Source of the DNA: Escherichia coli | Lineage (GTDB): Bacteria > Pseudomonadota > Gammaproteobacteria > Enterobacterales > Enterobacteriaceae | DNA length: 64,000 nucleotides | Assembly: GCF_001677475.2 (NCBI RefSeq) | Contig: NZ_CP015229.1 | Reading direction: 5' to 3' (one strand) | Shown: positions 61,801-64,000 of the stretch, piece after piece | How the letters are laid out: every line of letters begins with the position of its first letter | How positions within the stretch are numbered: the stretch's first letter is position 1 | Program-made: the position numbers

Positions 61801-64000
61801 TACGACCCGTGCGCCATTGCCTGCGAACCGTTCCGTCAGTGGGTGATTGAAGATAACTTTGTTAATGGTCGCCCGGACTGGGATAAAGTGGGCGCACAGT
61901 TTGTTGCAGACGTTGTGCCGTTCGAAATGATGAAGCTGCGTATGCTGAACGGCAGCCACTCTTTCCTGGCGTACCTCGGTTACCTCGGCGGCTATGAAAC
62001 TATTGCCGACACCATGACTAACCCGGATTATCGCAAAGCGGCCTTTGCCCTGATGATGCAGGAACAAGCGCCAACGCTGTCGATGCCGGAAGGTACAGAC
62101 CTGAACGCCTATGCGACGCTGCTGATCGAGCGTTTCAGCAACCCGTCTCTGCGTCACCGTACCTGGCAGATTGCGATGGACGGCAGCCAGAAGTTACCGC
62201 AGCGTCTGCTGGATCCGGTGCGTCTGCACCTGCAAAACGGCGGTAGCTGGCGTCATCTGGCGCTGGGCGTGGCTGGCTGGATGCGTTACACCCAGGGCGT
62301 GGATGAGCAGGGTAAAGCTATTGACGTGGTTGACCCGATGCTGGCGGAGTTCCAGAAGATCAACGCGCAGTATCAGGGCGCAGACCGCGTGAAAGCGCTG
62401 CTGGGCCTGAGTGGTATCTTTGCCGATGATCTGCCGCAGAATGCTGACTTTGTTGGCGCGGTGACGGCGGCATATCAGCAGCTGTGTGAACGCGGTGCGC
62501 GCGAGTGTGTGGCTGCGCTGTAACTAACTGATTACCCTACAGACTTACTGGTCAATCAAACGCATATTTGGTTGACCAGTTTTCGTTTTTTTGCCCACCT
62601 GTACGTGCCAACTTCCAGTGCTAATGGTATAGTTTGAGATTAACGGGTGCCGTAAAATTGCCCGTTGTAGGCCGTATAAGGCATTCACGCCGCATCCGGC
62701 AAAAATTTGATTAACCGCACCTAACGGACACAACACCATGAAATCTGCCACCTCTGCGCAAAGACCTTACCAGGAAGTCGGGGCGATGATCCGCGATCTG
62801 ATCATAAAGACGCCGTACAATCCTGGCGAACGGCTGCCGCCGGAGCGTGAAATTGCAGAAATGCTTGATGTCACGCGGACGGTGGTACGTGAAGCGCTGA
62901 TCATGCTGGAGATCAAAGGGCTGGTGGAAGTGCGCCGGGGTGCCGGTATTTATGTTCTTGATAGCTCAGGCAGCCACAACACAGACAGTCCGGATGCCAA
63001 CGTCTGCAATGATGCCGGTCCTTTTGAGCTGTTACAGGCGCGTCAGTTACTGGAAAGTAACATTGCGGAATTTGCCGCCCTGCAGGCTACCCGCGAAGAT
63101 ATCGTCAAAATGCGTCAGGCATTGCAACTGGAAGAGCGTGAACTGGCTTCCAGCGCGCCGGGCAGCAGCGAAAGCGGTGACATGCAGTTCCATCTCGCCA
63201 TTGCCGAAGCGACGCATAACAGCATGCTGGTGGAGCTATTTCGTCAGTCCTGGCAGTGGCGGGAAAACAATCCGATGTGGATCCAGTTGCACAGCCATCT
63301 GGATGACAGCCTGTATCGCAAAGAGTGGTTGGGCGATCACAAACAGATCCTTGCCGCGTTAATCAAAAAAGATGCCCGAGCGGCGAAGCTGGCAATGTGG
63401 CAGCATCTGGAAAACGTTAAGCAACGTCTGCTGGAATTCTCGAACGTTGACGATATTTATTTTGACGGCTATCTGTTTGATTCATGGCCGCTGGATAAAG
63501 TCGACGCCTGACTTATTATGATAAGCGCAAGGGTAAACATTCCTTGCGCTTTCTTAAATTAAGAAGTCGCAATGAGTATTACTTTCTAAATTGCAGGGTA
63601 TTGTTTAACTATCTGTATAACCTGAACGTGAGTACTCATTCTTCTCAGTGGTTATTTACCAATATAATTCCATTCACCATTTTTTAATTCAAACAGCTCT
63701 GGAAGAGATGACGGTTGCAAAGTCATACGTTTGAGTTTTGCATCTTCATCACCGGGGATAACTTTATATCCCATTTTTGCATGGATCTCCGCGGTACCGG
63801 GATAGGCTTCTATACCAATTATTGGGTCATTTCCCATCTCAATATTAGCATTAAGTAATGCGGCAACGGCGAATCCGGAAGAATTTGCTACCCCTGTTAC
63901 CGTCATTATCTGATCAATATAGATATCAATCCTTGGCTGCTCATTGGTCCATCTTTTTGCCTGAGAAGCTGGAAGGGTTGAAATATATCCTATCGTGGTT

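Follow-up and report, generated by a model that had tools for sequence, protein, structure and literature searches.

We asked what is encoded at the right edge of the window, a 64,000-nt stretch of Escherichia coli contig NZ_CP015229.1 (GCF_001677475.2), where an open reading frame (ORF) on the minus strand runs off the end of the DNA. A sequence-only reading had described an ORF of 84 aa with an ATG start (63652..63906) that it could not place in a family, and this ORF is present in the ORF listing exactly as quoted. The same frame translated to the edge (63652-63999) contains 115 sense codons (TTIGYISTLPASQAKRWTNEQPRIDIYIDQIMTVTG...EWNYIGK) followed by a stop, and the remaining two frames of this strand have many stops over the stretch and offer no open alternative. 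As there is no stop between the ATG at 63906-63904 and the window edge, this Met is internal (Met193 of YjiC) and not the true start, and the edge truncates the gene. The minus-strand ORF is a real gene, well past chance: it comprises the final 115 codons of yjiC (which we take to be b4325 in E. coli K-12), an already annotated gene that does have a family, Pfam DUF2686, called 'YjfZ/YjiC family' by NCBI.

The hidden Markov model (HMM) search that the sequence-only reading had proposed placed the gene in this family. Pfam PF10887 (DUF2686) matched the 115-aa fragment with E=6.5e-66 (222.6 bits, profile positions 171-285 of 285) and the full 276-aa protein of E. coli 19KM1831 (NZ_CP151026.1) from end to end (E=6e-151, 501.6 bits), both above the Pfam gathering threshold of 25 bits that we used as the cut-off for membership. 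The 19KM1831 genome is 100% identical to the window over 63400-64000 (601 bp), and there the gene is annotated as yjiC, 'DUF2686 family protein' (831 bp / 276 aa, uninterrupted). The sequence-only reading had suspected that the gene might run past the window and would have given it up if stops lay just beyond the edge, or if homologues and expression were lacking. In this genome, the closest and the only one identical over the visible 349 bp, 161 further codons lie upstream and none is a stop; homologues number in the thousands; and in K-12 the gene shows inducible transcription (PMC11228462). Projected from 19KM1831, the full yjiC would occupy the window-equivalent 63652-64482, so that the visible part is the C-terminal 42% of YjiC and the 5' 483 nt of the gene fall outside the window. 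A start at an ATG 90 nt farther upstream would lengthen the protein to 306 aa; we rejected it and kept the annotated start because every homolog begins with MSMP or MSIP. The 601-bp query found 5,403 of the 5,426 complete E. coli genomes, with coverage of at least 80% in 4,885 of them; yjiC is annotated in ∼4,900 of the 5,426.

The source strain itself presumably carries an intact 276-codon yjiC; this is stated with reserve because the 5' part is unseen and the source strain differs from 19KM1831. The two are identical from 63353 to the right edge and differ leftwards from 63352 by ∼1 mismatch per 100 bp, which suggests a breakpoint of recombination near the 3' end of uxuR. The best 25-kb matches to the window are only 97.9% identical.

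What, then, is DUF2686? A word-indexed search of 5.8 billion (5.8e9) proteins returned 25 clusters, all from E. coli, Shigella or E. albertii, and beyond these clusters a profile search brought up nothing but fragments and the paralog YjfZ. HMMER, run in full over 1.84e9 cluster representatives, found fragments of the family and one further candidate, a 477-aa repeat protein (P0056; E 8e-5 over seven short stretches), which we judged spurious from its sequence. The paralog, K-12 YjfZ (b4204, adjoining rplI), is 40% identical to YjiC over 225 aa. The full protein matched DUF2686 alone in a Pfam scan at E≤10, no family in NCBIfam and nothing significant in PHROGs, and searches of the PDB with the protein sequence and with the family profile gave chance-level matches only (e.g. 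GH3 NagZ at E 0.018, V-ATPase c and uS12). At the level of sequence, DUF2686 (YjiC/YjfZ) is an orphan family restricted to Escherichia. The window gene resembles its other members in the full-length HMM match (taken from the nearest genome), in its position between uxuR and iraD and in its length of 276 aa, and the window-type YjiC of the nearest genome is 92% identical to the protein of the commonest cluster (P0004). The name 'YjfZ/YjiC family' carries no functional information; the literature on yjfZ and b4325 held nothing on function, and most papers on 'YjiC' concern the unrelated Bacillus UDP-glycosyltransferase used for natural-product glucosylation, which shares the gene name only and belongs to another protein family.

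Could the fold tell more than the sequence? Reading of the C-terminal sequence gave the idea of a GNAT acetyltransferase, which we then tested by structure prediction with AlphaFold2 models of YjiC and YjfZ, both built on one 14-sequence alignment. The YjiC model had a mean predicted local distance difference test score (pLDDT) of 56.6 and a predicted template modelling score (pTM) of 0.60, with most of residues 140-276 at a pLDDT of 70-90. The order of secondary-structure elements in the two models, at moderate to low confidence, is that of GNAT enzymes (β1-α1-α2-β2-β3-β4-α3-β5-α4-β6-β7). In a Foldseek search with the YjiC model 40 matches had E≤1e-3, and the 50 best matches listed were all acetyltransferases; the best were the N-terminal acyltransferase of DfoC (5o7o), BH2621 (2qml), FdhC (5kta), AAC(6')-Ib (1v0c) and RimI-like enzymes, and 115-145 residues of the predicted model could be superposed on solved GNAT enzymes. 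The YjfZ model had the same topology and the same two top structural matches, and nearly all of its listed matches were GNAT-fold proteins. From these models it is quite likely that the residues after ∼60 form a divergent domain of GNAT-like fold, and the N-terminal tail of ∼60 residues is probably unconstrained and disordered.

GNAT enzymes carry a motif A (Q/R-x-x-G-x-G/A), the pyrophosphate-binding loop after β4, and many of them have a catalytic Tyr in the α4 region. In YjiC a candidate motif A (Table 1) is flanked by a predicted strand (187-194) and a predicted helix (201-212). We compared it with the RimI motif Q76-R-R-G-L-G81; it reads N-S-S-G-F-A in YjiC, and its YjfZ and E. albertii counterparts read N-A-L-G-F-I and N-S-S-G-F-V. 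The six-sequence alignment (A1) shows no variation at N200, G203 and F204. Further on, a candidate α4 motif has the YjfZ counterpart AAIYSGLGF, and its position 234, which is H or Y across the family, falls by inspection where many GNATs have the catalytic Tyr. YjiC would resemble the GNAT superfamily in its predicted topology and, as candidate features, in a loop after β4 that partly fits motif A and in an α4-like helix of the form 'A..(H/Y)..(L/M)G(F/Y)'. It differs from the superfamily in lacking detectable sequence or profile similarity, in having N in place of Q/R and a variable last position in motif A, and in an extra N-terminal tail of ∼60 residues together with a long, poorly modelled insert at 70-117. 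In one YjiC variant (P0005, 296 aa) this poorly modelled region contains a ∼20-residue tandem duplication (KEPWPFNYVTGACRESDGI repeated).

Several observations weigh against an acyltransferase. Residues 1-60 and 70-117 of the YjiC model are unreliable (pLDDT <50), and the model with YjfZ as the target is weaker (mean pLDDT 47.0); since both come from one alignment, reordered, they are not independent and the second is a partial replicate only. The candidate motif A is non-canonical, with N for Q/R at its first position and A, V or I at its last. No conserved general base was found on β5, where E225 is not conserved, and no link to GNAT came from Pfam (E≤10), from NCBIfam or from sequence and profile searches of the PDB. 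An hhalign comparison of DUF2686 with a purpose-built RimI profile gave a probability of 0.2%; both profiles are shallow (effective number of sequences 2.0 and 1.4), and the RimI profile is a weak test as its sequences are all at least 80% identical. What we say of coenzyme A (CoA) binding and catalysis by YjiC is prediction throughout, and acyl transfer by the protein is a tentative proposal, somewhat short of even odds.

Alternatively, YjiC could be a GNAT-fold pseudo-enzyme that binds a ligand or a partner, for example as a regulator of biofilm or type 1 fimbriae, and transfers no acyl group. We consider this unlikely: paralogs that are only 40% identical both keep G203, F204 and an H/Y at position 234, and the cofactor-side half of the domain is the best conserved, as expected if cofactor binding matters.

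Next to structure, selection on the gene is informative. For six intact major-type yjiC alleles the mean dN (nonsynonymous divergence) was 0.036 and the mean dS (synonymous divergence) 0.092, giving a dN/dS of 0.39, compared with 0.03 for the neighbouring uxuR and 0.33 for iraD; three divergent alleles were added for comparison. When the gene was split by codons (Table 1), the window allele compared with the other major-type alleles had a dN/dS of 0.15-0.35 over codons 61-276 and of ∼0.8-3.3, from very few changes, over codons 1-60. From these ratios purifying selection acts on the folded domain, the N-terminal tail excepted, and the unconstrained tail agrees with the low-confidence tail of the model.

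We then considered whether yjiC might be a decaying orphan without current function, an old AT-rich insertion that is silenced by H-NS and drifting to loss. About one E. coli genome in four lacks yjiC or carries a broken copy, which also weighs against the acyltransferase model. It is absent from 489 complete genomes (9%), in which just 413 bp separate uxuR from a highly divergent iraD and contain nothing of yjiC. Another 813 complete genomes (15%), including R3 and Nissle 1917, have a 44-bp frameshifting deletion of a segment that is intact in the window, and in R3 a stop at codon 12 comes on top of it (L006 1501-2287). Insertions of IS5 and IS1 are on record at the locus (PMC4498929; genome matches). 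The gene is thus dispensable, and its dN/dS far above that of uxuR, its low GC content and the reported binding of H-NS to its upstream region (PMC3661553) would also fit decay. Against this, the open frame is kept in the six major-type alleles examined in detail and in the three divergent ones, and yjiC has stood at the same site since before E. coli and E. albertii split (dS ∼0.94 over the whole gene) with a folded-domain dN/dS of 0.21-0.27 between the two species, whereas a gene decaying neutrally should show a ratio close to 1 and many stop codons. Moreover, its transcription is inducible (PMC11228462). Decay without function is therefore improbable.

In the yjiC-less haplotype (E. coli U1, L003 4774-5188), uxuR is 95% identical and is followed by ∼150 bp of unrelated AT-rich DNA; the iraD region that comes next is only 78% identical to L001 (8113-9490), with a fragment of a 'PEP-binding protein' downstream. 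As judged from these sequences, the yjiC-less arrangement is a very divergent haplotype of the entire locus.

Where the gene is present, its alleles fall into deep classes. The window allele is rare, with at least 99% identity over the gene in 2 of the 5,426 genomes and 90-95% in 4,100. P0019, P0020 and P0021, the most divergent homologs (61-67% identity), all lie between uxuR and iraD; one of them is from E. albertii, and its flanks have diverged equally. Two rare E. coli-like genomes (L014, 5001-5831; L015, 5001-5822) have a YjiC of 63-69% protein identity (dS 0.47-0.60) between flanks that are E. coli-like, with a dS of 0.09-0.11 for uxuR and with uxuR, iraD and the intergenic DNA 95-100% identical. 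The divergence ends sharply at the coding boundaries of yjiC and is strongest in codons 12-180, a pattern that fits either a recombinational import of old alleles or a long-maintained polymorphism.

The locus is also in use as a marker. PMC11057252 describes primers and a probe for quantitative PCR (qPCR) and Sanger sequencing as 'YjfZ' markers of E. coli; these match yjiC and not yjfZ. Mismatches of the probe number 0 against yjiC here (L001 8253-9083) and 13 against K-12 yjfZ, those of the primers 1-4 and 7-9, and the reverse Sanger primer maps to window positions 63703-63722. The published 'YjfZ' qPCR assay thus appears to target yjiC, and outliers of the assay could stem from the many strains in which yjiC is absent or carries a deletion.

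When is the gene expressed? In K-12, azidothymidine (AZT) raises yjiC 11-fold, independently of LexA and with a 2.7-fold dependence on SspA; the same treatment raises ytiC 260-fold, ytiD 33-fold, idlP 18-fold and iraD 14-fold, and the ytiC region is among the most strongly AZT-induced transcripts of K-12 (PMC11228462). The yjiC/iraD intergenic region has been described as an H-NS-bound 'promoter island' (PMC3661553). In Shigella, inhibitors of RNA polymerase induce yjiC alongside genes of the virulence plasmid, fimB/fimE and further virulence-associated genes of the chromosome (PMC3299763). In the atypical enteropathogenic E. coli (aEPEC) strain A111, a transposon insertion in yjiC made the cells biofilm-deficient (PMC4100040); this phenotype counts for less in favour of a role in biofilm, as it comes from a single uncomplemented insertion ∼6 kb from the fim operon (PMC4100040).

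Taken with the identity of the gene as yjiC, the explanation that we favour, with moderate confidence, is a GNAT-like acyltransferase with an accessory role in stress or biofilm. The window would hold the better-conserved, cofactor-side half of the domain (predicted β3-β4, the motif-A-like loop, α3, β5, α4 and β6-7). YjiC would bind acyl-CoA between β4 and β5 and move the acyl group onto an amine of some small molecule or protein, and the N-terminal half, which varies far more, would bind the acceptor. According to the literature, H-NS binds the region upstream of the gene, and replication stress switches the gene on together with the divergent ytiC/ytiD/idlP/iraD locus. Its function would be an accessory one, linked to stress or biofilm and lost from many lineages. 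A more far-reaching version is that DUF2686 is a genus-restricted, fast-evolving branch of the GNAT superfamily whose acceptor half diversifies in E. coli, the enzyme modifying a variable target (a phage, competitor or host-derived molecule) under balancing or diversifying selection. We raise it because of the divergent alleles in near-identical flanks, the losses and the 44-bp deletion, and the induction by replication stress alongside iraD, and we regard it as rather unlikely.

GNAT toxins such as TacT, AtaT and KacT acetylate aminoacyl-tRNA. That YjiC is a toxin of this type, a component of anti-phage defence or a secreted effector is much less likely than the other alternatives and highly improbable, since, although the YjiC model matches the fold of such toxins (7byy) about as strongly as that of other GNATs, YjiC is ∼100 residues longer, no plausible antitoxin-like ORF lies beside yjiC on the same strand (a 25% GC intergenic region upstream, a hairpin and the convergent uxuR downstream), and no defence model of PADLOC-DB matched YjiC or YjfZ at E≤1.

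The surroundings of the gene are conserved. The gene order is fim operon, gntP, uxuAB, uxuR, yjiC, ytiD, idlP, iraD and hypT, and yjiC lies between uxuR and ytiD/idlP/iraD, convergent with uxuR, in 19KM1831, EDL933, B, ETEC1738, E. albertii and others; it is at a fixed uxuR-iraD site throughout the genus Escherichia. In the window the ORF lies downstream of uxuR, as the sequence-only reading had it, in convergent orientation and 140 bp past the end of uxuR. GC content is 0.36-0.44 in the gene and 0.25 in the region upstream, so that the two stand out as AT-rich between flanks of 0.53-0.60; the intergenic region 5' of yjiC is 330 bp long with 25% GC. The hairpin between uxuR and yjiC (Table 1) is followed on the plus strand by UUUCUU, as in a terminator of uxuR, and it also folds on the minus strand, where the U tract is poor; it resembles a terminator of uxuR and could have an effect on yjiC too. 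A scan of the locus for consensus promoters and terminators found sites no more frequent than in shuffled sequence, and the hairpin was overlooked by this strict scan because of its loop and tail criteria.

Table 1. Features of yjiC and its neighbourhood, with window coordinates where these apply (E. coli dN/dS values compare the window allele with other major-type alleles)
Feature	Position	Strand	Evidence or value
yjiC 3' part, codons 162-276 and stop	63652..64000	-	open frame, DUF2686 match, 100% identical genome
Third base of yjiC codon 161	64000	-	in-frame codons occupy 63652-63999
Candidate GNAT motif A, codons N200-S-S-G203-F-A205, predicted β4-α3 loop	63868..63885	-	invariant columns; comparison with RimI
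Candidate GNAT α4 motif, codons A231-Y239 (AEIHAKMGY; cf. 'A..LY..LGF')	63766..63792	-	alignment, model and inspection
Segment lost in the 44-bp frameshifting deletion, intact here	63754..63797	-	genome comparison
uxuR, convergent neighbour of yjiC	62738-63511	+	GC ∼0.54, vs ∼0.40 for yjiC
Hairpin with 11-bp GC-rich stem, between uxuR and yjiC	63523..63551	both	dG -19.6 (+) / -17.5 (-) kcal/mol; z -5.3 / -4.1
yjiC codons 1-60			dN/dS 0.8-3.3 (very few changes) vs E. coli; 0.41 vs E. albertii
yjiC codons 61-180			dN/dS 0.15-0.23 vs E. coli; 0.27 vs E. albertii
yjiC codons 181-276			dN/dS 0.16-0.35 vs E. coli; 0.21 vs E. albertii

Beyond the window, the yjiC-iraD intergenic region (L001 9084-9754) has 25-35% GC and encodes YtiB, YtiC, YtiD and IdlP on the iraD strand. 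Elsewhere in the window, Rfam matches at gathering level were Ysr276 (34048-34242, 184.6 bits), a magnesium riboswitch (16289-16404, 125.8 bits) and a tRNA (40256-40337). The collinear ETEC1738 has a tRNA-Leu at the position of this tRNA, after which comes a small island (L017 2757-7352) encoding a restriction endonuclease that binds phosphorothioated DNA and an HNH endonuclease.

What was found at the edge of the window is a known, annotated gene seen in part, ordinary apart from one modest new lead. That lead, the predicted GNAT-like fold, offers a testable proposal on fold and mechanism for an E. coli gene of no established function. The allelic picture, with its deep classes, 9% absence and 15% pseudogenes, is relevant to users of the yjiC locus as an E. 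coli marker. The fold and the allelic structure together are small, checkable additions to what is recorded of yjiC.
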